Origin: Schmidtea polychroa
Taxonomy: Eukaryota
Reading direction: 5' to 3'
Length of the DNA stretch: 64,000 nucleotides
Assembly: GCA_044892525.1 (NCBI GenBank)
Contig: CM097885.1
Location: 21,454,001-21,518,000, forward strand
Shown here piece after piece: positions 13,901-39,465 of this stretch (positions are counted from its first letter, which is position 1; each line of letters starts with the position of its first letter). The position numbers and the translations under genes were made by a program. The notes under the pieces were generated by a model. The model saw only the letters and a list, made by a program, of their open reading frames with translations, was not told the origin of the DNA and did no database searches.

Positions 13901-16900
13901 TCGCTGTGGGTGTTGCTTCCGATTCCAATTTCGATGTTATTACGTCTTCCCTGAATCCTTTCCTTGCTCTCAATTCTTCCATCGCTCGTCTCTCTGCTTC
14001 TCCTTTTGGTTCACTGTACACTTTCCCTTGGATTTCTTCGAATATTGCTGTCTTGAGTAACATTAGTCGACATACTTTCTGATCTGCGTGGTATACCAGA
14101 GTTGACATTCCGGTTGAACATGATCGATCTGATGCGAGACAGCTTGGGTATTTCTTCATTGCTTGCGTGTCAGGGTCAAAGTAGCCTTGATACTTTTCCA
14201 ATTTAGCTTCGTAACTTTCTATTACGACCACTCCACTAACCAGTTGTCCGTTCAAGGTGTATGTTCCTGTCTCACATGTTCCGTCTCCTTTAGTGATTCT
14301 GCCCGCCGTATATACGCGAGTCGTTTTTATTTTTCCTGGTTCTGCAGCGATTTCAATCCCTTGCCTTAAGTGGATTCTCCCTGATCGGAACCCTTCCTCG
14401 CATTCCTCTCTTGATAGTAATATTACTGTCGATTCCAATCCTGGTTCTATGATTGTAGAGTGTGAGGATGAACCGCAGTGATGTGCGAATATCTTTCTGG
14501 TTACCGTACACTCTTGGACCATAGTTTTGATGAAATCTGCTTCTTGATATACGTTGTACGAGACTGATGCCATGACTGTTTGTAATTTTCTTGGGTTTGC
14601 CGCTTTACAGTCTTCCGTATCCTTTAATGAATATTTCTCATGGATTTTTATGTTGTCGCAGTCGTATACTGCAAATGACTCCGTTCCTTTGATACACATC
14701 ATCCATATCAATATCGTGGTTATTATGGCATTCATTCCCTTTCGACTTGCTCTTGGGTCGTTTATATTGATTGTTCCTTCGAATTCAGTTAGCAAATCGC
14801 GTAACTTTGCTTGCATCATTTCCGTTTGATCTTTCTTCCCAGTTGATTCGATGAAGCTTCTCCATCCCCCTTGTTCAAGTATATATGGTTCTATTGATCG
14901 TTTAATTATTTCTGTTACTGTGAATTCGTAACCCGTTGCGTTATATTTTGGCATTCGTTTTTTATATTGACCGATAACGTTATATACTAAATATGCTAAT
15001 CCCACTAAAAATCGATTTTGGTCCTCTGATCTGCTTAATAGATGTTCCACAATTAATCTGAGTTCCACGGGATCTTTTAACGTTAATCGAATTTTATTAT
15101 CCATGATTTTCATTATTATCGGTTTCAATACTGCCCATAATTGTTTGGCTTCGGTCGGAATATTATCCTTCCTCATGACTCTTTTCACTTCTGGATTTGC
15201 TAATGCTAACATGTTGGCTAATAGGTCATTTATCCATCGTGTCCCTTGTTCTCGGACGCTTGTCTTCACTTTCACTTGTTTTACTAATGCACTTAGTTTA
15301 TCCATTTTAGTTTTTACCTGCTCCATTTGCGCCTGAACTTTGGATTTTGGTTCGATCTCTGCTTTATCTGTTTTTGGTCTTCCTCTTGTTCGTCGATCCA
15401 TAGCTGTTCCGGTTTCTTTCCGTTTTGGCGGATTGTAAGTTGTATCTTTTGACGTGGTCGCTCCTGGATCTACTCTCCAGTTGCTCCATTCATCGGTTGT
15501 GGTTACATCTTTATTGGCACCTCTTTCCACGTTATCTAAATCCGTCTCGGCTTCCGTCGTTTCCACTGGTTGTCTCTGCGCGCATACAAATCCATCTAAA
15601 TCATCAGTTGTCGGTTCACCTTCGTCGATAAATAGATCTCCTGATTGCGATACTCTCATAATCTCGCCTGCTTCTACTATCTCTTGTAATTCATCCAGTA
15701 TTTCGTCTTCTCCCGTTGTTTCGATCGTCACTTCACTAACCGCATTTGGAACTTCTGGTGTGTCCAAACTTCCTGGTTGTTGGGTGGATGATTTTTGCTT
15801 TATCTCTCTTCTCCTTAGCTCTCTACCTGCAATTTTACTCACCGTTAATCTGTTCACAATTTCTCCTTGGAGTGGTGTCACACCGATCTCAATATCGTCG
15901 TCTAATGATCGTCCCTCATGTTGTAAGTGGAATGGGAGTTCATAAGGTATTCTCTTTTTAACTTCTCTGACTTTAGCTGTCGTATAGAATTCCTTTTCCA
16001 TTGGTTCAAAATCTGGCATGAATATTTTTAATTGATATTTCTCAGGTGAGTTTTCGGCCCACTCTTGTTGTTTCCATTTCCGGATGATTTCACCAAATTG
16101 TTCAGGGTACCATACGTATACCCGTCGATATTCTTCAATCGCTTTAACGATCTTTCGTAGATTTTGAATCCTTTTGCATGATTCGGCTATCCATTTTGCT
16201 AGTTCTACCACCGCTCGTCGACGATTTTTCGCCCCGTTTTGTAATATCTCCGTCAACTCCTTACATTTTTGTGCTTCCAACAATGTTGCTGCTTCCCCCT
16301 CATCTGCATCTGCGTCTATTGGTAGATGTCCTGAATCAGACACTCTTCTCCTCATCATACAGATTCTCGGTTGATTTTCTGGTATGTTCAGTCGTTGGTT
16401 CATTTCTTGTTCTGTTTCAACTTCTACTCTGATCTGGATAGCATTGTTTTTCACAAATTTTGACTGCTCATTCTCAATGTAACTTAGACGTATTAATTTA
16501 GGTGTCCCAGAAGCGATATTTTCTGATGTTGTTGGTCGTTGATAGCAGGCGCTCCTTGGATCTGGTTTCAATGTTTCTTTATGCATGTTAAGGCTATCTT
16601 TCAATGGTTCGATTGCTATCGTCACTTTTCTGCTAAACGGCCATGGTACCTTGTCGTCATAATTTCCTTTGCAGATGACGAAGAATGCCGACACATAACT
16701 TCCTTTACCTATCCCGTCTCCGTTCGGGTATATTCGCAATTTCATCTTGTACTCACCTAATCCTGAGTAGAACGGTGGACTTACTAATCGTGTGATTTTC
16801 TCTTCCTTTGCTGATTTTATCTTTTCCATCCAATTCTCAATTTTCCACGTGAATGGTGCTAACCTTACCGGTTCTCGTATCTCCTCATCTTCTCCTGATG

Positions 16901-19900
16901 GTAATTCATTTTGGAATTCTTGTGGTAATATATCCTGGTAAGTATCGATCGGTTTCTCTCTTACCCATACTGCTGCGATCTTTTCGGGTATATTATCTAT
17001 CCAATTTGGTTCCAACTTTTGCTGCTCCCAATCCCATCGAGCTTCACTTTCGATCCACACTTTTTTCCATGGTATCAGTTTGCAATCTTCGTCATTGAAG
17101 GCTGCTAGTTTTAGTTTATCATCCTTTAGCCAATGGTTATAAATATCTATTATTCGATCCATCTTTGCTCTCATTCCCCATTGGAATCTTTTAACTTGTT
17201 GCTCGGTTTTCGTGGCGTTTTTGTGCCCACCAGATGGTTCATCCATCGCGATTATATTGATGACGGCTCCATCTTCCCAGATTCCTAGTTCGTAAATTCC
17301 AGTTCGGTCTCCTCTTTCCAGCATGTGCCGGTTGTACATTATTATCACATCTTCGATCATTCCATCCTCACTATTTTCTCGCGCTTTTTGGATGATCTCT
17401 TGATCTATGATTTGCACTAACTCGTCAACTTGGCAATCGGGATTAACTTCTATTATTTGTTTCTCTTCATTTGGCAACTTCACCTTTATTTTTATCGTTT
17501 CATGCTCGCATTTGGTTCTCTCGTATTCTCCGTATTTAGATATCAATTCTGTCGCTCGTTTGTCTTCGAATCTCATGATTTCCGTGTCTCGTACGTCTTT
17601 AACGAATTGTTTCATTAGTTGTGGCCATCTTTCTCTCAGTCTATTAATGTATTTCCTTGTCTGATCGATAGCTTGTTTGACTAAGATTATTTGATTTTCT
17701 TTCATTATTTTTCGTTCGATCTTTTCCAATTCTGGTTCCACTTCATTGTTAAACACTTGTTGGATTTTCTTGAACATTTCTGCTACCGAGTCGTCATCTC
17801 TGGTTTTCTCTAAGGTTAAGATGTTAGTTTCGTTTGGCCATATCATCGCATCTACCAAATGTATGCCCATTTTAACTTTGTAACCATCGACATATAATTG
17901 TTTATTTTTATGGTTCGTTCCCATTTTTTCCTGTACCCAGTTGTACAGTTCATCGGTATTTGTTCCTTTTAATTCAATAGTCTGTATCTGAATCTCGGGG
18001 TGTTGAATACTTACTTGATATTGATCTGGGCCTGCTTCCTTTAGTTTCTCTTTGTATTTTGTTGCTAAATCTTTCCATGCTGCCGTTATTATACCTCCTT
18101 CACACTGGTATACTTGAGTTATAAGTTTTAAGCATTTTCTGTATGTTAACTCGTTGATGTAGCTCTCATTTCGCTCTATTTCTGTTACTGTGTCGAGAAT
18201 TTCCTCGAATATCTCTTCTTCACCTTTTTCTATCATTGATTTCATGTCATCATTTTCACTCTCCTCACTACTTTGAGGTGTTTCACTGTTTGGAGGTGTT
18301 TTCGGTTCGTTATTTTCCTCACTTGACTGAAATAATTCGCCTCCCAGGCTACTCACCTCGCTTTTCTCATCTTCCTGATCCGTCTGATCGCTCCGCATTT
18401 GTCTCAGCATGTTTATTTTAGCTTTGGTATGTGGTTCCTTCTTTTCAAACCACTCATTTTTCCTGAACCAATGCTCTTTCACTTTTTCTTTTATTTGTTC
18501 CTCAGTTAATGTAGGATTTTCGTTTTTGATTCTGTCTTCGATTTTTTGTAGTAGTACCCTCTGAATTCGATTTTTTGTAATTATCTCATTGCTTTTTGGT
18601 TCGTCTTTACTCTCATCTCTCTTTTGTCTCCTTTCTTTCTCCTCTTTGGTAAATTCTTTAATCAATTGTATTTTCTCTTCACTGCTCAATTCTGTTCGTG
18701 GATCAATCTCATCTTCTTTTGTCGTTTTTATCTCCTTGTTTATTATCGGTTCACTCCCGTCGTTGTTAACACACTGCTCCGCAGTGTGCGATTCCTCTTT
18801 ATTTGTTAATCTCATCATATTTATTCTTCCGGGATTCGCTTCCCGTTGTTTCCATCTTTCTTGAATTTCTCTGGCTTCCTCGTTTTGTAATCTTTGCCAT
18901 TCGACTCGTTGCTGATCTTGTTGTTGCTTACTTGGTTGGTTCCGGATTTCCTCGGTGCTCTGCATCATGTTGATTCGTTGTTGTTGGTTATTAGTCGGTA
19001 TTCGCTGGATCATATCTTTTAATTGTTCGATTTCCTGCATGAGGTTGATTTGTGTGTTCTGAACTGGATTGTTTGATCCTGGTTGATTTGGTTTGGTTCT
19101 CATCGTGCATTCTCTTGCCATGTGTCCAGGCTGATTACAATTGTAGCAGGTTCTGGTTCCTCCTCTGCCCATAGACATCATGGGTCCTCTGCAGACATTT
19201 TCCGTGTGGCCTCTTCTCCCACACTTTTGACACATCCTTGCTTTATAACATTCATTGCTCCAATGCCCTGGTCGTTGGCATATGTTGCACGTTCGATTGT
19301 TGATGTCCCTGAAATTATTAGTAAAATTTTGAATATTACCTCCATTGTCTTGGTTTCTCGTTTGTGGGGTTTTGAACAACTGTTGCGATCCTGGGATGAA
19401 TTGATTCATTACTGGATTTGCATTATTGACTTGGTTGTTTGTGGTTGTTGCTGTTGTTGCTGGAGCTGCTGGGGCTGCTGTCATTGCTGCTACTTGTATT
19501 GGTGTTAGGTAAGTTTCACATTTGTTAGCTATTTTTAGTGCTTCTTCCAGCGTCTCTGGTGCTCGGCATCCCAAAGTTGCTCGTATATCCTCCCGTTTCA
19601 TGCCATCTACGAATACGGCTATTATTTTGTCTTCCGGAACTGGTTGATTTGAATCGAAGGCTTCTCTTGCTAGTCGTCTCAATTCGCATGCGTACAGTGC
19701 GTTGGATTCGTTATATTTCTGCTTTCGATGCAGAAAGTCTAACATTTTTCGATTTCCCTCTTTTTCGGTACCGAATGTTTTTATTAAAAATTCCTTGATC
19801 TCTTTCCACGTTCTCAACTTAGTTGCATCACATTTCGCCTCCAAGTATACATCTTGGGCGCTTCCCTTTAGATATAGGGGTATTCGTTCTCGTACGACTA

Positions 19901-20306
19901 TGTCTGGCCAGTGACATATCGTAATGTATACTTCGAATTCCTTTATAAACGTTTCCAGCTGGTTTATATTTCCATCGAATGGCTCTCCTCGAAATTTCTC
20001 TCTGAATTCTCCAATGTTGACGTGCACATTACTTGTTTCCGGTGGGTCCGTTAGCCCTGTTACATTTGGAATTCCGTCTGTCATTATTTCTTGACACAAA
20101 ATTGTTATATTGGTTGACTCTGAACTATTTCCTTCCTCGTCTGATGATTCAATGTCACTTATCGGATCTAGTTCGGTTCGTTTAAGATCGTCGCTGTTCT
20201 CAAATTCGTTTGTTAAACTGTCTGATTCAAATACTGTTTCTACTGATGCTGGCTTCCTGTGTAGTTTTCTGTTGGTCTTGGCCTTTTGTATCTCTTCCTT
20301 TTCCAA
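7812..20306 (-). CDS. Gag-accessory-Env-Pol polyprotein (4164 aa from TTG; first ATG at 20084 gives 4090 aa)
   Basis: Capsid-like ~20000-19500; three CX2CX4HX4C knuckles ~19289-19106; MATH ~16856-16416; BH2-like YILEQGGWRSF; glycoprotein 14735-12915; protease IDTGA ~12242; RT YIDD 11024-11013; RNase H TDASG..NADCMSR; integrase HHCC, D-D-E and GPY; ankyrins ~8490-8000. Confidence 0.95.
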   Translation of the reverse strand: MEKEEIQKAKTNRKLHRKPASVETVFESDSLTNEFENSDDLKRTELDPISDIESSDEEGNSSESTNITILCQEIMTDGIPNVTGLTDPPETSNVHVNIGEFREKFRGEPFDGNINQLETFIKEFEVYITICHWPDIVVRERIPLYLKGSAQDVYLEAKCDATKLRTWKEIKEFLIKTFGTEKEGNRKMLDFLHRKQKYNESNALYACELRRLAREAFDSNQPVPEDKIIAVFVDGMKREDIRATLGCRAPETLEEALKIANKCETYLTPIQVAAMTAAPAAPATTATTTNNQVNNANPVMNQFIPGSQQLFKTPQTRNQDNGGNIQNFTNNFRDINNRTCNICQRPGHWSNECYKARMCQKCGRRGHTENVCRGPMMSMGRGGTRTCYNCNQPGHMARECTMRTKPNQPGSNNPVQNTQINLMQEIEQLKDMIQRIPTNNQQQRINMMQSTEEIRNQPSKQQQDQQRVEWQRLQNEEAREIQERWKQREANPGRINMMRLTNKEESHTAEQCVNNDGSEPIINKEIKTTKEDEIDPRTELSSEEKIQLIKEFTKEEKERRQKRDESKDEPKSNEIITKNRIQRVLLQKIEDRIKNENPTLTEEQIKEKVKEHWFRKNEWFEKKEPHTKAKINMLRQMRSDQTDQEDEKSEVSSLGGELFQSSEENNEPKTPPNSETPQSSEESENDDMKSMIEKGEEEIFEEILDTVTEIERNESYINELTYRKCLKLITQVYQCEGGIITAAWKDLATKYKEKLKEAGPDQYQVSIQHPEIQIQTIELKGTNTDELYNWVQEKMGTNHKNKQLYVDGYKVKMGIHLVDAMIWPNETNILTLEKTRDDDSVAEMFKKIQQVFNNEVEPELEKIERKIMKENQIILVKQAIDQTRKYINRLRERWPQLMKQFVKDVRDTEIMRFEDKRATELISKYGEYERTKCEHETIKIKVKLPNEEKQIIEVNPDCQVDELVQIIDQEIIQKARENSEDGMIEDVIIMYNRHMLERGDRTGIYELGIWEDGAVINIIAMDEPSGGHKNATKTEQQVKRFQWGMRAKMDRIIDIYNHWLKDDKLKLAAFNDEDCKLIPWKKVWIESEARWDWEQQKLEPNWIDNIPEKIAAVWVREKPIDTYQDILPQEFQNELPSGEDEEIREPVRLAPFTWKIENWMEKIKSAKEEKITRLVSPPFYSGLGEYKMKLRIYPNGDGIGKGSYVSAFFVICKGNYDDKVPWPFSRKVTIAIEPLKDSLNMHKETLKPDPRSACYQRPTTSENIASGTPKLIRLSYIENEQSKFVKNNAIQIRVEVETEQEMNQRLNIPENQPRICMMRRRVSDSGHLPIDADADEGEAATLLEAQKCKELTEILQNGAKNRRRAVVELAKWIAESCKRIQNLRKIVKAIEEYRRVYVWYPEQFGEIIRKWKQQEWAENSPEKYQLKIFMPDFEPMEKEFYTTAKVREVKKRIPYELPFHLQHEGRSLDDDIEIGVTPLQGEIVNRLTVSKIAGRELRRREIKQKSSTQQPGSLDTPEVPNAVSEVTIETTGEDEILDELQEIVEAGEIMRVSQSGDLFIDEGEPTTDDLDGFVCAQRQPVETTEAETDLDNVERGANKDVTTTDEWSNWRVDPGATTSKDTTYNPPKRKETGTAMDRRTRGRPKTDKAEIEPKSKVQAQMEQVKTKMDKLSALVKQVKVKTSVREQGTRWINDLLANMLALANPEVKRVMRKDNIPTEAKQLWAVLKPIIMKIMDNKIRLTLKDPVELRLIVEHLLSRSEDQNRFLVGLAYLVYNVIGQYKKRMPKYNATGYEFTVTEIIKRSIEPYILEQGGWRSFIESTGKKDQTEMMQAKLRDLLTEFEGTININDPRASRKGMNAIITTILIWMMCIKGTESFAVYDCDNIKIHEKYSLKDTEDCKAANPRKLQTVMASVSYNVYQEADFIKTMVQECTVTRKIFAHHCGSSSHSTIIEPGLESTVILLSREECEEGFRSGRIHLRQGIEIAAEPGKIKTTRVYTAGRITKGDGTCETGTYTLNGQLVSGVVVIESYEAKLEKYQGYFDPDTQAMKKYPSCLASDRSCSTGMSTLVYHADQKVCRLMLLKTAIFEEIQGKVYSEPKGEAERRAMEELRARKGFREDVITSKLESEATPTAIISKDDGIGMRFIKNKMVSKCDEMVISTNYKGIYLSRRTLANAVGRLSEKDVKLYLYANNKMDFLYHRGLTSTEKVYHDLLRNDCLLNKEILRTKLAMAITNPDNAIPLLPLQEGYFGRIVGEVMYTYQCKKIMARLPENPTIPRDKCANELEIIHEGKPRFVQAVTRIMNPVGFQPNLFNCSNAYGPMYEKEDGQWVQFPSKTIVVTPKKFGLTELTTELEFKPIDVSQSGLYTPKDLESARAHMLFPAHRQAILSNIVTISGGNNYGESPNYELLLSPSHYQQATANMMKAMWGRFLVFGQMMAGILGIILIIQIVRVILTQMLACFDIYKRERKVNWKLAIGFLPFLAKTMVLHGHSKDIHRIKRLLKILTQMKGTDEEVGRKFKVIMRLEAERTQEKAKRTGKWKKWMNLRRDDDSDNDNDDFNDDDNNQGGAMLINKNTATWENEKMKPWGSPYSQTPYLQAPTNGPMRRPGTMRERIRMGTGRLPIPNIYPTAYEPNWAAMDPTMIKQAKSVEQEVETRTIAVLQTPAGPSLTITVEVNGIEMDAMIDTGANISAINMNMLPGRLWPCIEETTMDVITCSKQSIAVVGRVWSTIEYKGVKVTTYLAVIRQLSVSCIIGTDVMPELLKEIVIDLSSMKLKDKTGQICTMRTEVRCSEKMIIPARTQTICYVKVDNEAKGDMIFEPSQKFEKRRELPLAREIVSINEDNEIPINITNFDEEDKVIYENERLGKLTPMMNIELPELKSEGADEKELWTIDSELLNEDEKEQLRQLLIEFKDIFAASDLDLGTSDVTQHIIPLTDETPITLRPYRLAEAQKTVAEEEVQKMLDAGVIEPSCSPWQFPVVMVKKKDGTQRFCIDYRRLNAVTKRDTYPLPDINEMLQMLHGAAYFTSLDLKSGYWQIKVKEEDREKTAFTIGKDLYQFKKMPFGLTNAPASFQRCMNFVTHGIKQCMVYIDDLLIYSGTFEQHLIDIRNVFIRLKQWKLKLKPSKCDWAKERVTFLGHIVSAKGKEPDPRNVEKIKNCPIPKTVTQVQEFLGLCGYYRKFIKNYATIAKPIQELTKKDTPFLWEREQQIAFESLRDKLIASPILIHPDFKKPFLLATDASGYASGAVLGQWDEEKRERVIGYYSKTFKKHEKNYSVTEREALAIIQAIKHFKYLLWGHEIIITTDHQPLVWLGQHKEASSRLMRWAMQLQEYSPYIKFKSGKANANADCMSRFVFEELMDHDVRRICLIIAEDIDFTNLKNEQKEDNELKLIIEFLDKNDTKIFNNDDRLKEHMEKNRHRYTIEKGWLLVMDGDKRLMCLPESRRKEIMIQYHDGKLGGHMSAKKTEARLKQKYYWPNMSDDVKEWIKNCLICATRRTTGSKLKPPLKPMPIPPEPMTMIAMDVVGPLPETNSGNVYILVITDYLTKFPEAFAMPDQKARTVARILVEEICCRYGTPKQILTDQGTNFMSEIINEVTNYFRIAKLRTSPYHPQTNGQTERFNGILIDMMSNYVSKHQKDWDEYIKLCLMAYRMSIHSATKMSPFKLMYGRECNMPMDLEYQPPISQYMEIDDYVTKFKERMQEIWKTAGMNIRFNQESYKELHDKKKNVQNHQFKVGDWVIIETPELIPGTAKKLQRNGRGPYEIIYVNENNARVKLVNNPLIRPIYVNTCRCKAVAKTATKDPETRKIITRSQTNATPEPEVSGRLTRSQTRRIFMLRGETSSSANKGTEAESEADAMARSQATWNMTVRIAREIVPEWADITNKYQVLGKLMLVAERYAKGRRYAEGLQIPTQIYELIRRLPIMFLTSDLSNNWPIHHAVKAGQEKRALEIIRIMENCKQSTNVKNSKGKTPLMKAIAIGASRDVLRELLRTGSTLKEKDNKQRTVLRYAVRSKRPSIVNFITGNATTEEAEVLGQSIEPILEAIRGNLDRTAAILIKWKQNELRAEVIDINQLQNNENIVLRSAIYSRPPMPKTIKAILQRNRTELTGNWWKCTKTTCDEKATRNTSVGMAPETTEISRNQRRTRKYPQRQKRDN

Positions 20307-21176
20307 TAAACTGAGGTTTCCTTTACTTTTTCGCCTCGTTCGGTTAGCTATGCTATCAATTTTTCCTCTTTTTAATATCCTTTGATAAATTTTCTACTTT
20401 GTCAATCGAGCTCGATGTTTCCTAAGTATTTTTCTCGCTTTAATCTTTACGATTCTCTAACTCTTCTTGGATTTGGTTTTATTAATTTCCTTGATTCTTC
20501 GCTTCTAATTGATTTCTCTATATCTCTTGATTTCTATTGCTTTCTTGATTTCTTTGATTTCTTTCTGAATTGTTTGCTTTATTCTAAAATAATTAACACC
20601 TCTAGTACATATCATAAATTCTCTTTATTAAACCCTTCATTTACTTTCCCTTTTCCCTTTATTTTACTGTCCCTTCGCTTCAAATTTTCTAGCTTTTCTA
20701 CACTTCTCGCTATTCGCCCCATTTTGATTTTAAGTTGATTTTAAATTATCTATAACTCGTATCAATTATCTATATAGTCGTATCAATTATCTATCCCTTT
20801 TATTATTATCATAGAAATATAATATTAATCACATAAATATCAAAATAAACATATCATTAATAAATAAAATTCAATAATTCAACTACTATCTATTCGTTCG
20901 CTTTTCCCCATCCAAAAACTGGTTTAGTTTTCGCTTGCGCCGGCGCTTTATCATAATTCTCCTCTACTCATTACATATTTATCGCACTTAATCTATTTCA
21001 GTTTAATCAATTTCATAGTTAATCATTGATGCTTTGGTTCGCGCGACCTCTACATCCACCTTTATTTACCATCGGCTCTCTGGCCGGTTTGTTCAACTCC
21101 TTTATTTTCATTTAAATCATTTCACTCAATTACCATCGGCTCCTTGGCCGGTTTAATCAACTCATTTTAATCTCAT

Positions 21177-24077: not shown

Positions 24078-24095
24078 ATCCCGGCTGAGCCCCCA
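24078..24095 (-). other. Primer-binding site complementary to tRNA-Pro 3' end
   Basis: TGGGGGCTCAGCCGGGAT, 16/18 identical to the MLV tRNA-Pro PBS TGGGGGCTCGTCCGGGAT, just inside the LTR. Confidence 0.9.
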
Positions 24096-24501
24096 AATTT
24101 GTATGGTGGGTTACTGGTGGTTGAATGATTGAGTGCTGTTACCAGCGTAACCCAAAATACAACATTGTTTTTCCGCTTGGTACCCGTTGAGTGATCAACG
24201 TTGGTACTGTACCAAGGGTTGAGTACTCGCAAAAAGTGAGCGCATCAAAGCACTATAGTTGTCGAGTACTCCGTGGGTTCACGGACTACCGATAGAAGGT
24301 GTGTGTCCGATTTCTCAGGTCCCTTTATCAAAATTGTTTTCCCAACCTTATGCACAAACTCTCATTTCCCAGGCAATCATAAACTGTACTAGTCATTATT
24401 TTATCACTACAAAACGTGCAGTATTTTAACAAGGAACATATTATTTGAAGACTACCACAATACATAAAAATACTACAAAACACCTAAAACCGAATATAAG
24501 T

Positions 24502-24971
24502 TCAAACAGGCCTATTGGTAGGACTGGCCAATTCCGTCGCAGCTGCTAGTGACGAATTTGCTTGTCGCTCGTATTCGGCCAGTCTAGCTTTCTTCAATTT
24601 TTCCCGAATATTTCGGCCTAACCGCTTTCTTTTGGGTTTCTCTTTCGCGGCCGGGGGGTATATTGCTGCTAGTTCCACGGTCAACGGCCGGATTTGGTTT
24701 ATGGCGGCTCCGTGAACTACTTGTTCATTTCGCTCGGTTTCTAGCGCGCGGAGCTGGAGCTTCAGTGCCCGGATCTCCATCTGATCCTGCGCGGCTTGAG
24801 TCTGCAGTTGAAGGACCCGCGCCACCTTCCTTTTCATATCCTCGGGACTAAACCAGGTGCTTTCTAGTTCCCGGCACCGTCCCTTGAGCTTGTCTACTCG
24901 TATGCGGAGCTCCTCGGACTGTTTTTGAGCTTCTGCCCTATCCCTTCGCAGATTTTCCAATAGTTTGAACA
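24502..24971 (-). CDS. LTR-encoded coiled-coil protein with basic tail (3' exon)
   Basis: Homologous to 39032-39465 (ESTWFxPxxMK, AQDQxExRAL). The track's GTG start is really the acceptor TCTAG|TG. Confidence 0.75.
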
Positions 24972-25181
24972 CTAGATAAATTCAACGATTATATTCTTGC
25001 AGCATACTATTCATTCAATTATAAAATAAAATCAATATTATAAATAAACATAGTTTCGGAGGTTAAGCACGCAATACACAAGATGATTTATTAAAAGGAC
25101 TGAAATAATTATCACTAAAATCAAAGTTTAATAAAGTCACAACTGAATGATAATTTGCAAAAACAAAATTTCGACGATAAG

Positions 25182-25547
25182 TCAGTTCAGTCGCTTGCGA
25201 GGCCTTCCCCTCTTCCGCGGGGTTGCCTCGGCCTCTTCTAGGTCCTCCACGGTTTTTCCCTCCTTTTCTGCTTGGATTTGTAGCTCGATCTTCTTGAGCC
25301 GCATCTGAGCTGCTTCTACCTCGATGGCCGCTCGGTCGCGGGCCTCTTGCAAAAAATCGTTTGTGGGCTCTGTTTTTACCCACGCCGGAGCGTCCGGCTC
25401 CGGCCCACTCCTGATTACTGGGCCAAAGTTGTCGAGGTCCAAACCCCGATTCCAATCATGGATACGGTGCCATATGTACCGTGTACGGAGTCTGGTAAGC
25501 ATCTGTCGGTCGGCTTCTTCGTGGCTATCGCTGTCAGAGTAGGACAT
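25182..25547 (-). CDS. LTR-encoded AT-hook protein, 121 aa
   Basis: C-terminal TPRKRGRPRKR; LTRLRTRYIWHRIHDW shared with 39969-40451; acceptor TTTTGTAG|AAATG. Confidence 0.75.
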   Translation of the reverse strand: MSYSDSDSHEEADRQMLTRLRTRYIWHRIHDWNRGLDLDNFGPVIRSGPEPDAPAWVKTEPTNDFLQEARDRAAIEVEAAQMRLKKIELQIQAEKEGKTVEDLEEAEATPRKRGRPRKRLN

Positions 25548-26059
25548 TTCTACAAAATAATAATCAAGCCCCTCTATACTGATTGAGATACGACGTCAAC
25601 CACAAGATTTTGTTGACCCCTTTTCCCTTTTAAAAAAAAAATATTTTATTTTTAAGACTAACATCTATAAGCTTAGGAGTAGTGGAATAAGGTTTCCTAC
25701 TTTATCAAAACAAACACACAAAAAAAAATTTTCGTCAAAATTCGTTTGTTTAAATTAATCATTTCCATTCAAAATTTTGTTTACCACTGAGTAGTAATTT
25801 TAATTACTATTTATAAATTTTAATTTACATGTTAATAAAATGTGAATTTTTTCCTTTTTGATCGTCATTTTTAGGCCACTAAATTCGGGCACGCTGGGGC
25901 GACAGGTACTAGCAACGAACTAAGCTCTTCGTCTGCTTACCTTTCCTTCGGTTGTGCTCGTTATGAGTGGTTTGCTCTGCATACAAGTAATTTATTTAAT
26001 TTGCTAATTTCTAAATTTCCAGGTGATCGATATCGGATTGGGATATCGATTTTTTTGTA

Positions 26060-26420
26060 GTTAACTGTAATAATACCAATAATAATAACAATGAAATAAC
26101 GATACTAATAATAATAATAATAATGACAATAATAATACTAATAATAGCAATGATAGTAATAATAATAAGAATAATAATAGATTTTAATAATGGTAATAAT
26201 AATAATACTAATAATAGTAATAACAAGAATAATAATAAATTTTTATAATGGTACTGATAATGATGATAATAATAATAATGCTAATTATGATATTCATAAT
26301 AATGATAATAATGATATAATAATAATAAGAATAATAATACTAATAGTAATGATAATGTTGATACTGCTAATAGTAATAACAAGGGAAATGATCAGGATTA
26401 TGATGACTATAATTTTATAA
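26060..26420. repeat. Degenerate (AAT)n microsatellite inside the LTR
   Basis: Seen directly; counterpart at 41880-42120. Confidence 0.9.
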
Positions 26421-27693
26421 TCCCATGTTTTAGAATTACAAATTCATGTTTTATAATTTACACTTTGATAATTTTCGATTTATAATTTAAAATTTTTCCA
26501 TTTAGGGATTTACAACCTTGTAATTTATAATTATAATTTCATATTTTGAAATTTATACATTCATATTTTATAAGTTGTAATTGCTTAACTTATAATTTAT
26601 AAGTTTATAATCTAAAATTTATACTTTTGTAATTCGTATTTTCATACTTTATATTTGAAATTTTTAGTCGACGGAATATACTTCTTACAACTTCCTTTCT
26701 ATGATCAACATTGTTTTCCGCAGTACTTACAAATTTCCTGGTCCTATTTGTGGATTAAACTTCAGGGTTCTAGCGCGTCTATCGCCTATCTGTAACCAAT
26801 CCTAAGTTGATTTTTATACGAAAAATTGTTTACTACTATCTCTGATCAGACTTTCTCCATTAACAATTTACATTTTCAGGATCGACGTGATTTGTACCTA
26901 GCTATCGTAATTATTTATAACTTATAGTTTTATAGTTAACAACAAGAGTATTACAACTAAGAGCCTACACATTTACAAACCTTTTAAAGTGGGAACTAGA
27001 TTTAAAATGTCTATCTTTACTCGGAATCAGTATCCCTAGATCAAGTTATACCTGTACGTATGCCGAATATCTCTCTTATTTCTATTACTTTATCAAAGAT
27101 CCTTACTACAAAATCTAGTTCGGCATATGTCTAAGTATAATTGAAATTACCATTATGAATCAACGAGCTACATTAATGTGAGTGTAGAATTGTGTAATTT
27201 TAGGTACGAGCTCTACTCAAATTAGAACCTTAGTGTAGAGTTATTGTTCAGGATTTTAAGTGTTGAGTTTAATTGTATATTACGCAATGAGTCGGGAAGA
27301 ATATTGCTTCCATGGCCCCACTGTGACCACGTCCACAAACCTTAGTGTTGTGTGCTAAGTCAACCATTTACGGCTGACCTTAAATAAATACGAAGAGTCA
27401 GGCGGAGGGTTTCCTCGACCTAACTCCATGGCAGGACCATGAAGTAGTTCGACCTCCGGCTGACCCGAACAAAAAGAAATCATATAATAAATATCACTAT
27501 AATAATGATAATGCGTGTCTGCATGTCCTGTTAATAACGATTTTAATAAATTGGATGCAGGACTGAACAACGACGCAGGAATACCAGTACGCCGTTGATC
27601 ACTCATACATCGCAAAAAAAAAATTTTAAGCAAAAATAAATTTAAAATACCATCTATATAATTAAACAATTAATATACAAATAAAGATCAATG

Positions 27694-27774
27694 CTTACTA
27701 TCGATTTTGGAAATTTCGTCACAAAAATTTGGCATAAAAGTGATTATTGTGACTGAAACGTGTCAGTATATATA
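27694..27774 (-). promoter_or_regulatory. Putative LTR core promoter and leader exon: TATA 27774-27767, Inr-like TCACTT ~27741, donor A|GTAAG at 27699/27698
   Basis: TATA and an A|GTAAG donor recur at equivalent places in LTR copies near 31400-31485 and 43660-43745. Confidence 0.6.
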
Positions 27775-27829
27775 CCTATTTAGTACACGTGTATGTATTG
27801 ATGCATTAAAACAAACTCGAATTCTTTTT

Positions 27830-28150
27830 ATTCCAGAATTTTCTATTTTACGATTTTGCTATTTTTAATGGCAATTTTTGTGCCATAATTTTTGTTTTTA
27901 TTTTTATATTTTTATTTTTTAATTATTTTTCATTAATTTTACGTCCATGATGGATTTGGAACGGTTCCAGAACATTCTATTTTACTTTTAATTTAATTTT
28001 TATTTTAACTGATGTTTTTATGAATTCTTTTTGAGATTTTTTATTTTTAATACTAATTTATTTATTTTCCTTAACTTTTGTTGTTCTAGATAACTCTTGT
28101 GATGGTCATCGCCATTTTTATAGAATGTTCTGGGTTTTTCTGGAATGTTT
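27830..28150. promoter_or_regulatory. Heat-shock elements in LTR U3
   Basis: TTCcaGAAttTTC (27831), TTCcaGAAcaTTC (27965) and an in-phase six-unit array with mismatches (28123-28150). Confidence 0.65.
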
Positions 28151-28429
28151 TACTGTTTTTATCGTCTTTTAAGTTATTCGAGTCTGTTTTTTGTAACTCT
28201 GTGTTTATTTGGTTATTTTTGAGTTAGATTTTTGCATCACTTCTTGCTTTTGTATAATTTTGTTTAATTTCTTTGTTTATGTTTTTGTTGCTTTCTCCTT
28301 TAGTTAATATTGTTTATTTGGTGTAGGTTTTAATATTTAACTATACTTGGTGCTTTTTTACTTGCTGTGTACCTACGCGTTTCAGTCACAATTAGTATTT
28401 TGGGTCTAGAAATCAGTTCTAGCCCAACA

Positions 28430-31400
28430 ATATTAGTAATGATGATAATAACTTTGATGATAATAATAGTATTAATAACAATAGTAGGATAGTTTCCCAT
28501 TTTTTCATTCGAGATTCCCCTTTTCTAATTGTAGAAATTCTACGCTTATGATTTAGGGAGTTACCTTTACAATCTACAGATTTCTGTCTAGAATTCAGCG
28601 TTTATGTTTTACCATTTATGAACTTCTACCTTACAGTGTCTAATTAAATATATCTCGTATATAGTTTAATACTTTATTATTTGCTATTCTGTATTTTGTT
28701 ATTTTATAATCGCCGCTTCAAGTGTTGTAATTTATAAATTTGTGTTAGCTAAATTTGTAATTTTCGGATTCCTAATTCATAGCGTTTTATAAATTTATAA
28801 TTTATCAGTTCTCGTTTCATGAGTTAATTTTGTCGATTTTAGAAATTTATCCTCTACGATCTACAAATTTCCTTTCACTATGATAATTGTGCACTCTTAG
28901 CTCTGCAATTGGTATGGTAAATGCGGGACTATCGTCTAGCTTCTAGTCCATGTTCATTGGACGTCTAGCTGCAGTGCGAGGTCAGAGTTACCAGTCGGTG
29001 TGCTTGCAATTTGTATGCCCCGCAGAGTGAGAGCTTTTTGGTTTACCACTCATACGTTCTAGGTAACCTACAATCCTGGTAAGATAACTGGAATAATTAA
29101 TCGATTTCTCGTTCCTCTAATTCCAGAATGCGGAATGTGCAACTACGTCACTGGTGACTCACAAATTTGTAGATTATATCAATTACCTGATTGGTCTACC
29201 GATTGGCTAGCATGACTGCATGTTACTAAAAATAGATTTCATGCGTGTTGTATCGATCGTTTGATTCCTCCGTAAGTCTAATTTTGTATAATTCTTAAGC
29301 CATAATTTATGATGATCAAACAGGTTCGTCGTAATGCTGTCGGAAGCCTCTGCGGATAATTTTAATTCTGAAGATTTTGGACTATCGGAACTATTGAGTT
29401 CATAACAAGGCGATACTCGATATAACGTTTGCCCTGCCAACTGCTTTGTCGAATGCTCCATGGATTTATCAAACCCACTCGCTTCAAGTTATTCGTTGGA
29501 TTTCGAAAACGATCTCACCGATACAATTGGACGTAAAACAGGATGACATCGCAATCGCTCAACTCCAATCTCAGATATCCATATTGAACGTTGCATGTGA
29601 TCCCAATGACAATTATGATTTCCCATAAATTTTCTTATGTAATAAAGTATTTGTATGGTAAACTGTTTTTGTTTTTATTCAAGTTTAGCTGCGCAAAATT
29701 ATTCGAGTTTACTTGGTAGTGTGACCTACACTTTGGCTTTAGGGTATCTTTATTAATCGTTTTGCACCAGGATTTTTCATAAGTGGGACGGAATTTCCGT
29801 TTATTCTAGAAGCTGGACAAAATTAAGATTTATAGTTCGGAGGTCTTTAGAGGACTTATAGAGCAAACAAAACTTAGATTATCATCGGAAATTTTTAATC
29901 ATTATTCTAATCGAGAGTCAAATAAAATCAGGTGTCTGAGTTATACGTTTCTAAAGCACAAGCATCAATCATAGACTCAGAGTTTATACTTTGGAAATTC
30001 CAGAAAATATAACCTAAATATCTCGAGATTATGAACTCAGTTACCCTATCAAGCTAACATTATGCTCTAAGTATTCAGTCAAATTATAGTTTATAATCAG
30101 TTACCTATTTAAGGAAATGCCTAATACTACGCTATAATTTAGGTATGCATAAATTATCGATGGGGGAATAGGAGTTAGCGTTATACCTTTCAACATTTGA
30201 AAATTATATTTTATATGAAAACCCTAATTTCTAATTTAAATGGCTAAATATGTAAATAATTTATAAAATTCTATTATATTTTTATACCTTATATTTTAAA
30301 ACTAGCTTCCGTAATCTATTAAAGTTACACTTTATCAATTGGTACTATTATATAATATACTCTATATTTTCAACGGCACGCAAAGCCATATTTCTACTTC
30401 CGCATTAATAAAATATAATATAACCCAAAATTATATCCCAATATCTTCACACATTATATTTTAAATAGGCATAAGGTTATATTTCATAGTAAAAATTTAT
30501 AAGTTATTTCTGAATGTAGCATAAAAGTATATAATTAGTAATTATAAATTATACTTCAAGCAAAGTTATTTTATAATTTCTAAACATTTAACATTTTTAG
30601 ATTACGTTTTCGGACTCATTATTAAGACATATTTCATAAATAAAGGGTAATACGTATTTATAGGTTGTAACTTCGACTACAAATTTGAGCCATAGATTTA
30701 AAGTTAATTAAGTACTTTCATTTGATTATTTACGTTTGTCGAACTTCTTTACGAGGATTTCTACATTTACTCTAAAAATTAAAGAAATTTTTAAAATTAT
30801 ATATCTCAATGCAGTTCGACAAACGTATAGGCATAATCGAGTTTTCCCATGATGATCAACCGACTACATGTGTTCAATTTGGGTCTGAGTTCTACTCAAT
30901 TATGACCTTAGTGTAACCCTATTGTCTACGATTTTTAATGTTGAGATTAAATATGTTTGCTTGTACTCGGGAAGAATGCTTGCTTACACGGCCCCACTGT
31001 GACCGCTACGACAAGCCTTATTGTAGTGTTGTGTCGAAACATCGCTGTCGACCGATAAATAAAATATATGGAGCCATAGCGGAGGGGTTTTATCGACACA
31101 ACTCCATGGTAGAACCATGAAGTGGCCGACCTCCGATGACCAAACAAAAAAAAATATATAAGGTATATTGCCTGTCTGCATGTATAATCGTTATTTTAAA
31201 CTAAATATTAAATGCAGGACTAAATAGAGGCGCACTAAGACGCCGCTGATTAGTCAAAAAATAAAAACAAGTTAGGTCTTGAGAGGGTTAAAACCAATTA
31301 AAATCATTGACGTTAAAATAATTTGCATTAATGAATCAAAACATAAAAATATTATTATTAATGATGAAACAATGAATATCAAAAAGGAAAACTACTTACT

Positions 31401-32552
31401 GTTAGTTTTCTTGACAAAAATTTTGTTCACAAAATATTGGCATAAAAAAGTGATGATTGTGACTGAAACGTGTCAGTATATATACCTATTTTGTACACGT
31501 GTATGTATTGATGCATTAAAACAAACTCGAATTCTTTTTATTCCAGAATTTTCTATTTTACGATTTTGCTATTTTTAATGGCAATTTTTGTGCCATAATT
31601 TTTGTTTTTATTCATATATTTTTATTTTTTAATTATTTTTCATTAAATTTACGTCCATGATGGATTTGGAACGGTTCCAGAACATTCTATTTTACTTTTA
31701 ATTTAATTTTTATTTTAACTGATGTTTTTATGTATTTCTTTTTGAGATTTTTGTTTTTAATACTAATTTATTTATTTTCATTAACTTTTGTTGTTCTAGA
31801 TTGTTCTAGATTGTTCTAGTTTTCTTGACAAAAATTTTGTTCACAAAATATTGGCATAAAAAAGTGATGATTGTGACTGAAACGTGTCAGTATATATACC
31901 TATTTTGTACACGTGTATGTATTGATGCATTAAAACAAACTCGAATTCTTTTTATTCCAGAATTTTCTATTTTACGATTTTGCTATTTTTAATGGCAATT
32001 TTTGTGCCATAATTTTTGTTTTTATTCATATATTTTTATTTTTTAATTATTTTTCATTAAATTTACGTCCATGATGGATTTGGAACGGTTCCAGAACATT
32101 CTATTTTACTTTTAATTTAATTTTTATTTTAACTGATGTTTTTATGTATTTCTTTTTGAGATTTTTGTTTTTAATACTAATTTATTTATTTTCATTAACT
32201 TTTGTTGTTCTAGATGACTTTTGTGTTGGTCATCGCCATTTTTATAGAATGTTCTGGGTTTTTCTGGAATGTTTTACTGTTTTTATCGTCTTTTAAGTTA
32301 TTCGAGTTTGCTTTTGGTAATTCTATGTTTGTTTGGTTATTTTTGAGTTAGATTTTTGCATCACTTCTTGCTTTTGTATAATTTTATTTAATTTCAGGGT
32401 TTAGGATTTTGTTGTTTTTTCCTTTAATTACTATTGTTTATTTGGTGTGGTTTTCCAAATTTAACTATACTTTTTGCTTTTTACATGTTGTATACCTGCA
32501 CGTTTCAGTCACAATTAGTGGTTTGGGTCTAGAAATCAGTTCCAGCCCAACA
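28430..32552 (-). mobile_element. Partial older LTR of the same clan, interrupted by the giant element
   Basis: Ends ..tccagcccaaca; ~31430-32552 closely matches 27720-28429 and 30880-31250 resembles 27200-27600. Confidence 0.75.
31403..32214. repeat. 414-bp-period tandem duplication of the LTR promoter segment
   Basis: tagttttcttgacaaaaa at 31403 and 31817; junction has repeated ttgttctaga. Confidence 0.92.
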
Positions 32553-34429
32553 CACGTTAGATGATGAGAGCAGGCCCATCACTACATTTACCCTAGATAA
32601 ATATTATGGAAAAGGGCCAAACAAGTATAGGGTCAATGTATTCGCCGAAGAACGTAATTAAATAAAAATTCGCTATCTCTCTCAATCCAATTTCCCAACA
32701 GTTCAACAATCCGATTCTCCAAATAAAAATAATAACTTTCAACATCTCCTGTGTGTACATAATCTTAATTCGAACTCTATTCTATTGACATTATTTTTTA
32801 TAATATTCATAATTTTAATTTGAACTTTATTTAATTTTACTTTTATTCATCTATATCTGTATGACCTTCATTTATATTGAATTTTATCTTTATCAAAATT
32901 GTATTTTATTGTGAATTTTTATTTTAATGTCACTTTTGTATTTAAATTTTTATTGTAAAACAAAAAACATATATATATAAAGGGTATTTAAAAGAAATCA
33001 ATTTTTATAAATAATTTCAAAGTTAATATGAACGAAATAAATTAATTCAAATTTTAAGACGATAAATTAATATGCATAGTCTCAAGTATAAAGTAAATAA
33101 AATTAATTCATATGTGTAAAGAGACTGAAATAAATTAAATTAACTTTAACCCGTCCAAATTAATGTCGATATATTTAATTTCTAAATAGTCTTATAGCTT
33201 ACCCAACCTATTGCCGAATTATTCAATTATAGAAAATGTCCAAGAATCCCTCAACCACGACGCCTATCCGGCCATGCTTCTCGTGCGCCGACAAAAACTC
33301 TATCATTAAGACATTGCAAACCCAAATCGGTCTATTGAAGAAGAAGATAAACCATTTTGAAGGGACGTTGTTCACGTCCACGCAAATGAAAGAAATGCGG
33401 ATGAAACTATCTCGGGTTGAACACTGCCGCGATAGTCTTATAGAGGAGAGCCGTACTCAGTGGCTTCTCATTAAAGAGCAATCAGAGGCCTTGCACAAAG
33501 TCTATGTGCAAGCGACCCTAACCAAGACAATCGTGACCGTGCCTATCACGGAAGAAGACGATGTCTTCGCCCTACATCATCAAACAACAGAAGTCAGTCA
33601 AACATCAAGAAAATCCTGCACCAGCTGTGTGGACACGCTTTTATCGCCGCCCAATTCCTATATCTGTCACGGGGGTCAGTCAAGTGACCTCGAAATCTAT
33701 TCCACATCCAGCGAAAATCACACCTCCAGTGTCACTGGTCAAATCAAAACGCCGACAACCGACACGATCGGAACGAAACAAAAAACGGAAGGCTTTGCAG
33801 GCGGAACGAGAGACCCAACTAGTTGCTGAAGGGATTCAACTAGCCCTAAAAACTCCATCTGAGGCGCCAATAACTTCAACGGGGCAGTTTCGCGTCGTAC
33901 CACCTTACAGTACTTCCTGGGAAGAACACACCAGGGACTTATTCGATTTGGACGAGCTTTACGCAGGAACCTCACCTTCCACGTTAGGAGACCCGACGCG
34001 GAATCCGCTATTGTAAATATAAGAACTGAATAGAATGTCTTTATCGAGATCCTCTCTGTATGATCGTTGTGGTTTCAAGTCTCTATGATATAACTAGGGT
34101 AAGTATATTTTATTCTTAAGGTCGTGTACCTGTGGATAAATAGGGGTAGCGCAAATCAAGGTCTCAATGAGCGAGGTAAGTCGTAAGTCTTTCTATCGGC
34201 AGTCAGGAGAAGGGTAAAACGGAATATGGTGAATGAGTACTCATAAGGCAGGGGCTCACCTGCTTCACTATATTCCTCCATCATGGCACAGTACCAACAT
34301 GACGTAAGTCATGGTGTGAGAGCGATCATGAGGGGTCTGAGTAGCGGTCACAAAGAGTTCCTTTAGTTTGATTGACCTTCATTCCCTAGTAGAGAGTGAA
34401 TGTGTGTTGACCTAGTCGACAACCCAACA
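32553..34429 (+). mobile_element. Partial LTR of a divergent subfamily
   Basis: Ends ..acccaaca; carries the coiled-coil gene homolog and the TTCTATCGGCAGTC..ACAGTACCAAC motif. Left boundary uncertain. Confidence 0.6.
33236..34016 (+). pseudogene. Frameshifted LTR coiled-coil gene (ORFs 33236-33829 and 33561-34016)
   Basis: FEGTLFTSTQMKEM resembles FESTWFPPTEMKK; the basic tail lies in the second frame; acceptor TTATAG|AAAATG. Confidence 0.55.
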
Positions 34430-35218: not shown

Positions 35219-37217
35219 TTAATCAACTTCTTCAACTGTCGGACCTTGTTTCCCAGCACCTCCTTGTCCGCCAGCTGCACCCGGCGCACCACCTGGAAAT
35301 CCGCCCGGGAACCCTCCAGCACCAGCACCACCTGCTCCTTGATACATTTTAGTCATTATTGGATTACATATCTTCTCCAATTCTTTATAATGATAATCAA
35401 ACTCATCCTTAGTCGCCTGTTGATTCTTTTCCAACCAATTTATCGCTTCTTGACATTTATCAATTATCAGTTTTCTATCTGATTCAGAAATTTTATCTTT
35501 CAATTTTTCATCTTCAACTGTTGATTTCATTTGGTATGAATAACTTTCCAATGAATTCTTTGCAGCTATTCTGTCTTTTTGTTCTTCGTCTTCCTTTTTG
35601 TATTTTTCAGCTTCATTAACCATGCGTTCAATATCATCCTTTGATAATCGTCCTTTATCATTGGTAATGGTAATTTTATTCTCTTTTCCTGTACCCTTTT
35701 CAACTGCAGACACATTCAAGATACCATTTGCATCAATATCAAAAGTAACTTCAATTTGCGGAACACCACGTGGAGCTGGTGGAATTCCAGCCAATTCAAA
35801 TTTACCAAGCAAATTATTGTCCTTTGTCATCGCTCGTTCCCCTTCATAAACTTGAATTAAAACTCCCGGTTGGTTATCAGAATATGTAGTAAATATTTGC
35901 GTTTGCTTGGTTGGAATAGTTGTATTTCGTTTAATTAAAGCTGTCATCACTCCACCGGCAGTTTCTATACCCAAGCTCAATGGAGCTACATCTAATAATA
36001 ATAGATCTTGTACAGCTTCTGATTTATCTCCTGACAAAATTGCCGCTTGTACTGCTGCTCCGTACGCAACTGCCTCATCGGGATTGATGGATTTGTTCAA
36101 TTCTTTTCCATTGAACAAGTCTTGAAGGAGCTTTTGAATTTTGGGTATTCTTGTTGATCCACCAACTAATACAATCTCATGAATTGTATTTTTATCCAAC
36201 TTAGCATCTCTCAATGCTTTCTCTACTGGCTCTAAAGTCGAACGGAACAAATCAGCATTCAATTCCTCAAACCTTGCTCTTGTAATTGAAGTGTAAAAGT
36301 CAATACCTTCATATAATGAATCGATTTCCAAATTTGCTTGTGCACTGGAACTCAAAGTTCTCTTTGCTCGCTCACAAGCTGTTCTCAATCTTCTAACTGC
36401 TCGCTTGTTATCACTAATATCTTTCTTATGCTTCCTCTTGAATTCTTGAATAAAATGATTTACCATCCGATTATCAAAATCTTCACCACCCAAATGAGTA
36501 TCACCAGCAGTAGATTTTACTTCGAAAATACCATCTTCAATTGTTAAAATTGATACATCAAAAGTTCCTCCTCCTAAATCGAATATTAACACATTGCGTT
36601 CAGCACCGACCTTTTTGTCTAATCCATAAGCTATAGCAGCAGCTGTTGGTTCATTAATTATTCTTAAAACATTTAATCCACTAATTGCACCAGCATCTTT
36701 AGTTGCTTGTCTTTGACTATCATTGAAATAAGCTGGAACAGTTACAACAGCATCTTTAACTGTTTTACCCAAGTATGCTTCTGCAATCTCTTTCATTTTT
36801 ATTAAAACCATCGATGAAATTTCTTCGGGGAAAAATGTTTTTGTTTCACCTTTGAATTCTACTCGAATTTTCGGTCTACCAGTTTCATTTATTACATCGA
36901 ATGACCAATGTTTCATGTCACTTTGAACTGACGATTCATCAAATTTTCGACCAATTAATCGCTTTGCATCTAGAAGATTTTAATTACTTTACTCTAATTC
37001 AGTATTAATTCTTACCGAAAACTGTATTATTAGGATTCATCGCCACTTGGTTTTTTGCAGCATCTCCAATCAATCGTTCGGTATCTGTAAATGCAACATA
37101 ACTAGGTGTTGTGCGGTTTCCTTGATCATTCGCAATAATTTCAACTTTCCCATGTTGAAATACACCAACGCATGAATATGTAGTACCCAAGTCAATACCA
37201 ATAGCGTTACCAGACAT
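35219..37217 (-). CDS. hsp70: Cytosolic Hsp70/Hsc70, 650 aa; exons 37217-37016 and 36969-35219
   Basis: [31 protein letters not shown]; a 46-nt GT-AG intron restores NTVF-DAKRLIG. Confidence 0.98.
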
Positions 37218-39031: not shown

Positions 39032-39465
39032 TCATAGGGTTGTAGTCGGTTCTTTCGGTGCGGACTCTGACAAAGTAGCATTGAGTGTCAATTGGGCCTG
39101 ACAGGCTTGGCGGATTCTCGCCCGCGCCGCTTTACCCGGCCGAATCTTCTTCTTCGAGATCTTCGACGCTTTTTCCTTCGGTTGGTGAAAAAGTTCACTC
39201 ATAGGTCGGATCTTGAGAATGACCTCTCGATCAAGGTCCTGTTGGTGTACCTTGACCTCCAGCTCTCTCACTCTCAGGCGGAGGGCCCGCAACTCAACTT
39301 GATCTTGGGCGCTCTGGAGTTGCTTCTTCATCTCTGTGGGCGGGAACCAGGTGCTCTCGAAATTTCGGCAATGGGCCTTAAGTCGCATTAACTTGGCCCG
39401 GTATTCTTCTACTTGTTGTTGCGCCCGCTCTCTATCTGCCCGCATTTCTTCCAGGAGTTTTAACA
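39032..39465 (-). CDS. LTR coiled-coil protein homolog (3' exon)
   Basis: Open homolog of 24502-24971; acceptor TTTCAG|TG. Confidence 0.7.

Follow-up and report, generated by a model that had tools for sequence, protein, structure and literature searches.

The window (the whole stretch of 64,000 nucleotides analysed here, positions 21,454,001 to 21,518,000 of Schmidtea polychroa contig CM097885.1, assembly GCA_044892525.1) contains on its reverse strand a 5′ LTR of 4,326 bp (24104-28429), which belongs to a young gypsy element about 34 kb long. The 3′ LTR was found in locus L072, about 30 kb away, with 99.95% identity across 4,326 bp, and the element is flanked by a 4-bp target duplication (ATAT). 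An open frame of 4,193 codons lies on the same strand (7812-20393). Pfam domains were assigned in it to gag, CCHC, MATH, a mononegavirus-like fusion glycoprotein, protease, RT, RNase H, integrase and ankyrin; their order places the env-like region in frame between gag and pol, and TRAF and BIR-RING ORFs follow downstream of the frame. The same domain set and layout have been described for planarian Burro/GYPSM1 (PMC6431247), which shares with the window element a length of >30 kb, multi-kb LTRs, the in-frame env-like region between gag and pol, and MATH, BIR and ankyrin domains. From this likeness of layout, the host element is probably a Burro-type giant gypsy. No named Burro1-4 reference was among the matches of a protein search. 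Matches P0027-P0045 were mostly unnamed metagenomic polyproteins with about 50% pol identity, many of them with the same fusion-protein domain, and may come from Burro-like elements in other animals.

The last 210 bases of the 5′ LTR carry an RNA motif (about 24170-24300, reverse strand, domains 1-3 below). The preliminary description had placed five full copies of it in the window, and all five were recovered: a shared 14-mer matched exactly at five places, against 0.55 matches expected by chance even at 2 mismatches, and none of 100 shuffles reached five. Two further family C copies, with no PBS after them, lie at 38774-38933 and 46835-46993 (both reverse strand; 138 and 123 bits with covariance model R1). 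An aged family A copy is at 34177-34343 (forward strand, 92 bits) and a family B copy at 53243-53405 (forward strand, 140 bits); these four scores are those of training sequences. The family B copy lies in an LTR type without small ORFs, which upholds the earlier statement that the motif persists where ORFs are lacking. Its 3-kb relatives (L002, L020, L021, L106, L107 and L123) contain no ATG ORF of >=70 aa in the 1.5 kb upstream. The partial copy reported at about 44460-44525 is also present, but retains just the third hairpin of the motif, together with the LTR end. The covariance model that had been proposed was built and detected both this truncated family B copy, delimited at 44459-44558 (listed on the reverse strand; 33 bits, E=4e-8), and a new, decayed family C-like copy at 49611-49731 (forward strand; 29 bits, E=5.5e-7), which is followed by a family C LTR end. 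A 40-bit R1 match just past the family B LTR end (53502-53676, reverse strand) consists of rearranged family B-like motif pieces. In the 781-Mb genome, the 14-mer had 3,397 exact matches (4 for the reversed control), the domain 3 motif 5,172 (control 40) and a loop variant 709 (control 27). The motif occupies the last 200-270 bases of Burro-type LTRs, ahead of the PBS.

Other pieces of LTR were seen in the window. Separate copies of the 5′ part (about 0.7-1.2 kb) of the family C LTR are found at 30878-32567 and 43597-44402, one of them inserted in a family B LTR end. Host-type frames for HSP70, GINS PSF1 and an RRM-protein (35219-36979, 50432-51025 and 58386-59231, all reverse strand) lie between the LTR copies. 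Small LTR ORFs are located directly upstream of the motif at 24502-24981 (reverse), 39032-39490 (reverse) and 33233-33829 (forward). The small protein of family C is coiled-coil-like with an Arg/Lys tail and that of family A has about 250 aa and a CxxC at its N terminus; no convincing Pfam match was obtained for the small ORFs of either family. The first small ORF of the LTR (25180-25551, reverse) ends in an RGRP basic stretch, which we take to be AT-hook-like. A pyrimidine-rich AG directly 5′ of its ATG looks like a splice acceptor, and the contig cover of one putative RNA run ends near the start region of this ORF. A poly(T) loose end at 28037 (reverse strand, 390 nt into the LTR) was present in 7 contigs of run X6. 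It lies about 25-30 nt past an AATAAA and is preceded by a genomic A-run, so that it may be a true poly(A) site or the product of internal priming at the A-run. Contigs from the putative RNA runs span the motif and show no transcript ends there; the motif may lie in U5 or in R.

The motif was resolved into three domains, and the fold continues beyond the span originally described into a fourth, a terminal stem closing at the last bases of the LTR. Domain 1 (24282-24309) consists of a short stem, a 4-nt bulge, a 3-bp stem and a 7-nt T-loop-like loop (24297-24291). The 14-mer, first taken as single-stranded, is the 3′ part of this hairpin with its 7-nt loop. Among 87 copies, pair 24300-24288 occurs as G-C (59), A-U (17) or G-U (5) and pair 24305-24286 as C-G (84) or G-C (3); the lower stem has compensatory forms in other families. 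The loop is a 6- or 7-mer with constant U1, U2, C3 and A5, closed by a C-G pair. U1 is present in 86/87 copies, A5 in 87/87 (this A being fixed by the search anchor) and the C-G closure in 82/87. Domain 2 (24221-24271) is a long stem in which a C-loop-like CAC (24238-24236) faces one bulged base (24255), below an apical 5-6 bp stem with a conserved U-G pair. The GCTCAC of the preliminary description belongs here, as a 3′ arm plus internal loop and not as a hairpin loop. Of the 87 copies, 41 have G-C and 36 have A-U at the closing pair 24256-24235, and pair 24251-24242 takes four Watson-Crick forms (two-set E=1.5e-4); two lower-stem pairs of this domain are still out of register between families in the 87-row alignment. 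Domain 3 (24176-24216) has an 8-bp stem, a 4-nt bulge, a lone C-G pair, a CAA loop (24203-24201), a 6-bp stem and a tetraloop. What had been described as an 8-nt bulge is better read as the 4-nt bulge, the lone pair and the 3-nt CAA loop. Six of its 15 pairs reach a two-set E<0.05. Its apical loop is a GNRA in 20/20 parsed family A copies and U-Y-R-C in 35/39 parsed family C copies, for which the antisense strand reads GNRA (24191-24194 in the window); the family C apical hairpin appears as if inverted relative to that of family A. UNAC/UMAC loops can mimic GNRA (PMC12550061), and the family C loop may, from its letters, be such a mimic. Domain 4 (24104-24153) comprises the terminal stem and a GNRA-capped hairpin and closes at the terminal CA of the LTR. 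Each pair of the terminal stem is formed in 37-40 of 40 family C copies, where it is almost invariant; the domain is longer and covarying in families A and B, and the terminal stem is present in all three families.

The unpaired bases of domains 1-3 fit known three-dimensional modules. In the T-loop module, U1 and A5 frame the loop with 1-2 extruded bases on a Watson-Crick pair (PMC4551918). The domain 1 loop agrees with this arrangement, but has a U at position 4 in most copies. The C-loop module is an N-C-A-(A/C)-N internal loop facing two paired bases with 0 or 1 bulged base (PMC4551918). Domains 2 and 3 each contain a three-base C-A-(C/A) loop located 5-6 bp below the apex and facing one or no bulged base, with CAC letters conserved in 84, 86 and 81 of 87 copies in domain 2 and CAA in 87/87 in domain 3, both partly fixed by the search anchors, as is part of the loop conservation in general. 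The examples of PMC4551918 close with U-A, in contrast to the C-G found in domain 3 and in families A and B. The loop bases thus fit one T-loop, two C-loops and GNRA caps, as matches of sequence and not solved structures.

Pairing was examined in two sets of copies. Alignment A1 contains 68 copies of three families with few gaps and 61% mean identity, and leaves out 7 of 95 matches that lack domain 3. The 87-row set was derived from 173 anchored matches, reduced to 91 below 96% identity and then by 4 false anchors. Every compensatory set quoted in the preliminary description was found in the sequence. For 27 named pairs, 96.0% of cells were paired, against 77.3±0.6 after shuffling and 32-41% when the strands were slid, and 19 of the pairs change on both sides. 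Tree-simulated independent columns were also used as a control, because relatedness inflates the shuffle control. Covariation over many copies was significant: 30 pairs were 92.1% paired against 76.9±3.1 under the tree null (0/300), the structure having been drawn from the same sequences as those used in the test. Summed G-APC was 814 against 5±38 under the tree null (87 non-redundant copies, 30 pairs). Power for single pairs was modest, 8/30 pairs having a two-set E<0.05 (87 copies). Blind pair scans returned 1/11,935 (61 rows) and 1/12,090 (87 rows) at E<0.05, their power being low because three clades dominate the rows. As an independent check, model R1 detected 11/11 held-out divergent loci of the genome (20-99 bits) and 0/3 generic gypsy contigs. 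No pseudoknot covariation was seen in the 87-row alignment.

The earlier remark that G-U pairs favour the sense strand was confirmed, with 240 G-U cells against 40 A-C cells when family-specific registers were used. With the conserved U-G pair removed, the counts were 107 against 58 (87-row set). This U-G pair is present in 82/87 copies and works on the sense strand only. Folding favoured the sense strand in families A and B (family A: 11/12) and was strand-neutral in family C (z -2.7 against -2.3, sense lower in 6/12). Taken together, these data support a real and selected RNA fold on the sense strand near the 3′ end of the LTR.

The PBS (24078-24095, reverse strand) begins eight bases past the end of the 24104-28429 LTR and is an 18/18 complement of the 3′ end of the genome's own tRNA-Pro(UGG). 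Genes for this tRNA form a tandem array with a 475-bp unit at G000:C1:130.90-130.95 Mb (L134-L145), and a 22-base pattern of the tRNA-Pro T-arm has 2,167 genome matches. Among the 12 of 95 motif matches that are followed by a PBS, the distance from motif to PBS is constant within each family (C 202-203, B 245-246, A 264-269 nt). The other matches have no PBS within 330 nt, as expected for 3′ or solo LTRs. The exact family C junction of LTR and PBS has 365 matches in the genome.

Two kinds of stretch complementary to the primer were found. The first is the linker at 24275-24281 (reverse strand), complementary to tRNA-Pro nt 50-56 in the 5′ strand of the T-arm, a putative PAS-like contact. Its GAACCC is present in 33/40 family C, 17/21 family B and 2/2 family E copies (52/63 in total) and in 0/24 family A copies, and it is kept although families B, C and E diverge widely elsewhere. 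The complementarity is only 6-7 bp and was equalled by 3/60 shuffles in family C and 7/60 in family B, a few family A copies being mislabelled B. The linker can also pair with the G-run of the PBS and, in family C, is complementary to the 5′ arm of domain 4. In some family C copies (L031, L128), the PBS match is 23-24 nt long and reaches through the T-loop; most of the tRNA bases matched by the linker would then be covered by the PBS, which argues against the linker contact.

The second is a box in the variable loop of domain 4 in family A, in which up to 16-17 bases pair with the D-arm of tRNA-Pro with one bulge. It is in register in 22/24 copies, and its median duplex score was matched by 1/200 shuffled D-arms. 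The mean share of the most frequent letter was 0.78 in the box against 0.61 and 0.51 in the flanks, several box letters having been fixed by the search pattern. Tolerated changes number 27 (21 C>U opposite tRNA G15-17 and 6 A>G opposite U) and disruptive ones 2 (1 U>C opposite A and 1 G>A opposite C); at position 7, U occurs 17 times and A 5 times, and either can pair depending on the bulged tRNA base. In the window, the aged family A copy retains a putative box at 34379-34389 (forward strand) with 11 contiguous pairable bases and a score of 17, the lowest of 24 rows. When intramolecular partners were sought in the 3 kb around the box, the tRNA was the best partner in two full-length copies (-23.2 against -14.3 and -20.0 against -16.0 kcal/mol). 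The D-arm shuffle test showed no excess in family B (107/200) or family C (54/200), and the anticodon-arm segment showed no excess pairing in any family. The D-arm contact is suggestive and not proven, because about 12 family-by-segment tests were made and families B and C were negative. A perfect 8-mer complement of the D-loop occurs at the corresponding site in 16/27 family B copies. An intramolecular helix between linker and box was also considered for family A and showed no consistent register by eye.

Packaging, export, priming and catalysis had been offered as functions. Priming gains from the adjacency of the PBS and from the two types of tRNA-complementary box, and catalysis received no positive evidence. 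Our working interpretation, held with slightly better than even confidence, is that the four-domain fold is a 5′-leader platform that loads and activates the primer tRNA-Pro for reverse transcription. The terminal stem would fold away the last 50-130 bases of the LTR, so that no more than about 35 unpaired bases would separate domain 3 from the PBS. A compact three-dimensional shape, set by the T-loop and both C-loops, would be recognised by Gag/NC or RT. The tRNA 3′ end would anneal to the PBS, and a second contact would then hold the opened primer. For this contact, families B, C and E would use the linker (T-arm) and family A the domain 4 loop box (D-arm). When the PBS is included in the fold, it can pair with domain 1 and the linker, and this pairing could correspond to a closed state. 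The contacts of the HIV PAS and ASV U5-TPsiC are precedents, the HIV one being itself disputed (PMC3185550). Ty1 boxes pair with the TPsiC and DHU arms of the primer, but the DHU-complementary site of Ty1 CYC5 actually pairs within the RNA (PMC4974528), which counts against the box reading. The primer interpretation is also weakened by the core domains 1-3, the most conserved part, in which no tRNA complementarity was found.

Every family retains that core, whereas the tRNA boxes vary from one family to another, as would be expected if domains 1-3 were a Gag-binding packaging or dimerisation signal and the tRNA-complementary stretches were secondary or due to chance. The two similar C-loop hairpins could then be repeated protein sites, Gag has CCHC knuckles, and the packaging signals of Ty1 overlap its 5′ structure (PMC4974528). 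The apical loops, on the other hand, are not conserved palindromes, no kissing covariation was seen among the top 15 pairs, and a signal in the LTR ahead of the PBS would presumably sit on spliced and solo-LTR RNAs too. Overall, this account is unlikely, with appreciable weight, and Gag recognition may itself be part of the primer-loading function.

It would be a bolder and distinctly less probable proposal that domains 1-3 form a new class of tertiary-folded RNA. The element's own T-loop, beside the T-arm linker, would rebuild a tRNA-like elbow once the T-arm of the primer has opened. The same strand would also keep the PBS masked before primer arrival, and capture of the one tRNA would have switched between T-arm and D-arm among sister lineages. 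A new ribozyme class makes up the smaller part of this case.

More doubtful still is control of nuclear export, splicing or translation (Rex/RxRE- or CTE-like) through binding of a small basic LTR protein or a host factor. In families A and C, the LTRs do encode small proteins 200-300 nt upstream, that of family C ending Arg/Lys-rich, and several ORFs ahead of gag-pol would call for some such control. This fits poorly with the persistence of the fold in family B LTRs that have no small ORFs and with a spacing tied to the PBS.

Many near-invariant unpaired bases and the predicted tertiary modules could also indicate that LTR transcripts are processed by a self-cleaving ribozyme of a new class, and other retroelements are described as containing ribozymes. 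We consider this very improbable. The Rfam check agreed with the earlier statement that no ribozyme consensus is recognisable: there were no hits at E<=1 in the window and no family near its gathering score, two weak unrelated hits lying far below. The hammerhead ribozyme has the core motif CUGANGA and the hairpin ribozyme a characteristic loop B motif, and each was found in 0/87 copies. HDV-like ribozymes are built on a nested double pseudoknot with a P2 helix. No P2 partner was seen in the 68-copy alignment, and the top 15 pairs contained no complementary covarying pair outside the nested helices, bar one phylogenetic-looking pair with a base that is already part of a helix. To the lack of pseudoknot covariation is added that T-loop and C-loop geometry largely accounts for the invariant bases, and that strong-stop DNA would presumably lose most of its template if the RNA were cut 100-200 nt ahead of the PBS. 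Separately, K-turn, loop E, ENE triple helix, H/ACA, SECIS and CTE were considered, and their hallmarks are not kept across families.

The least credible explanation is selection on antisense RNA, on single-stranded cDNA or on a DNA promoter or 3′-end signal: the antisense GNRA of family C (35/39) and its equal folding on both strands speak for it, against which stand the sense-only U-G pair (82/87), the sense GNRA (20/20) and sense fold (11/12) of family A, the capacity of UNAC/UMAC loops to mimic GNRA (PMC12550061) and, for a DNA signal, 87 cores with neither AATAAA nor a Pol III B box, the latter ruled out (0/87) because of the C-G closure of the domain 1 loop.

Occurrence of the motif outside this genome was searched for in several ways. 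Thirteen 16-mer matches in viral contigs scored only 9-27 bits, and the one examined in its context (L093) lies in unrelated sequence. A three-part pattern gave 34 metagenome and 4 viral matches, none of them reaching E<0.1 with the model. When viral contigs were scanned from the protein side, 0 and 3 loci were obtained, and those three are distant gypsy elements that lack the motif. The collections contain few animal genomes, and these results therefore do not show that the motif is absent elsewhere. Literature searches returned no description of a Burro LTR RNA fold, of the Burro PBS type or of tRNA boxes. A term look-up in PMC11410931 gave no mention of such a fold, nor did the main text of a 2026 bioRxiv survey of ribozymes, whose supplements could list the Burro LTR RNA. 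The account of Burro/GYPSM1 in PMC6431247, in the parts consulted, deals with proteins only and mentions no LTR RNA structure, PBS type or tRNA boxes. Novelty ranks below that of a free-standing new RNA, because a folded domain ahead of the PBS is expected in retroelements (PMC11181671, PMC4974528). The Burro LTR fold is of this expected kind, has an unusual set of modules and is apparently unpublished.

Even for HIV there is dispute over the contacts that activate the primer, and the leader structures of gypsy elements in animals have received little description. Several diverged families supply thousands of natural copies as a ready-made covariation set, and the two alternative tRNA contacts predict specific protections. 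A T-loop with two C-loops in an LTR points to a compact three-dimensional fold worth solving, and the covariance model can also serve to mark the LTR ends and solo LTRs of Burro elements.

The HIV-1 PAS, HIV-2 and ASV U5-TPsiC systems resemble the window fold in that a folded domain precedes the PBS, a short stretch is complementary to the 5′ strand of the T-arm of the primer, and a stem lies beside the integrase end (PMC3185550, PMC11181671). No sequence or Rfam similarity was found between the window fold and the retroviral PBS segments covered in these sources. The window linker differs from the retroviral PAS in its length (6-7 nt), its position between two helices about 180-230 nt ahead of the PBS, its absence from family A and its flanking hairpins, one with a T-loop and two with C-loops. 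Ty1, Ty3 and gypsy share with the Burro fold additional genomic segments complementary to the T and D arms of the primer (PMC4974528; PMC1635307). Those of Ty1 are located 3′ of the PBS in GAG, and those of Ty3 and gypsy at the far 3′ end of the genome (PMC4974528; PMC1635307). The Burro boxes, in contrast to both, belong to the LTR and precede the PBS, and different arms of the tRNA appear to be used by sister families.
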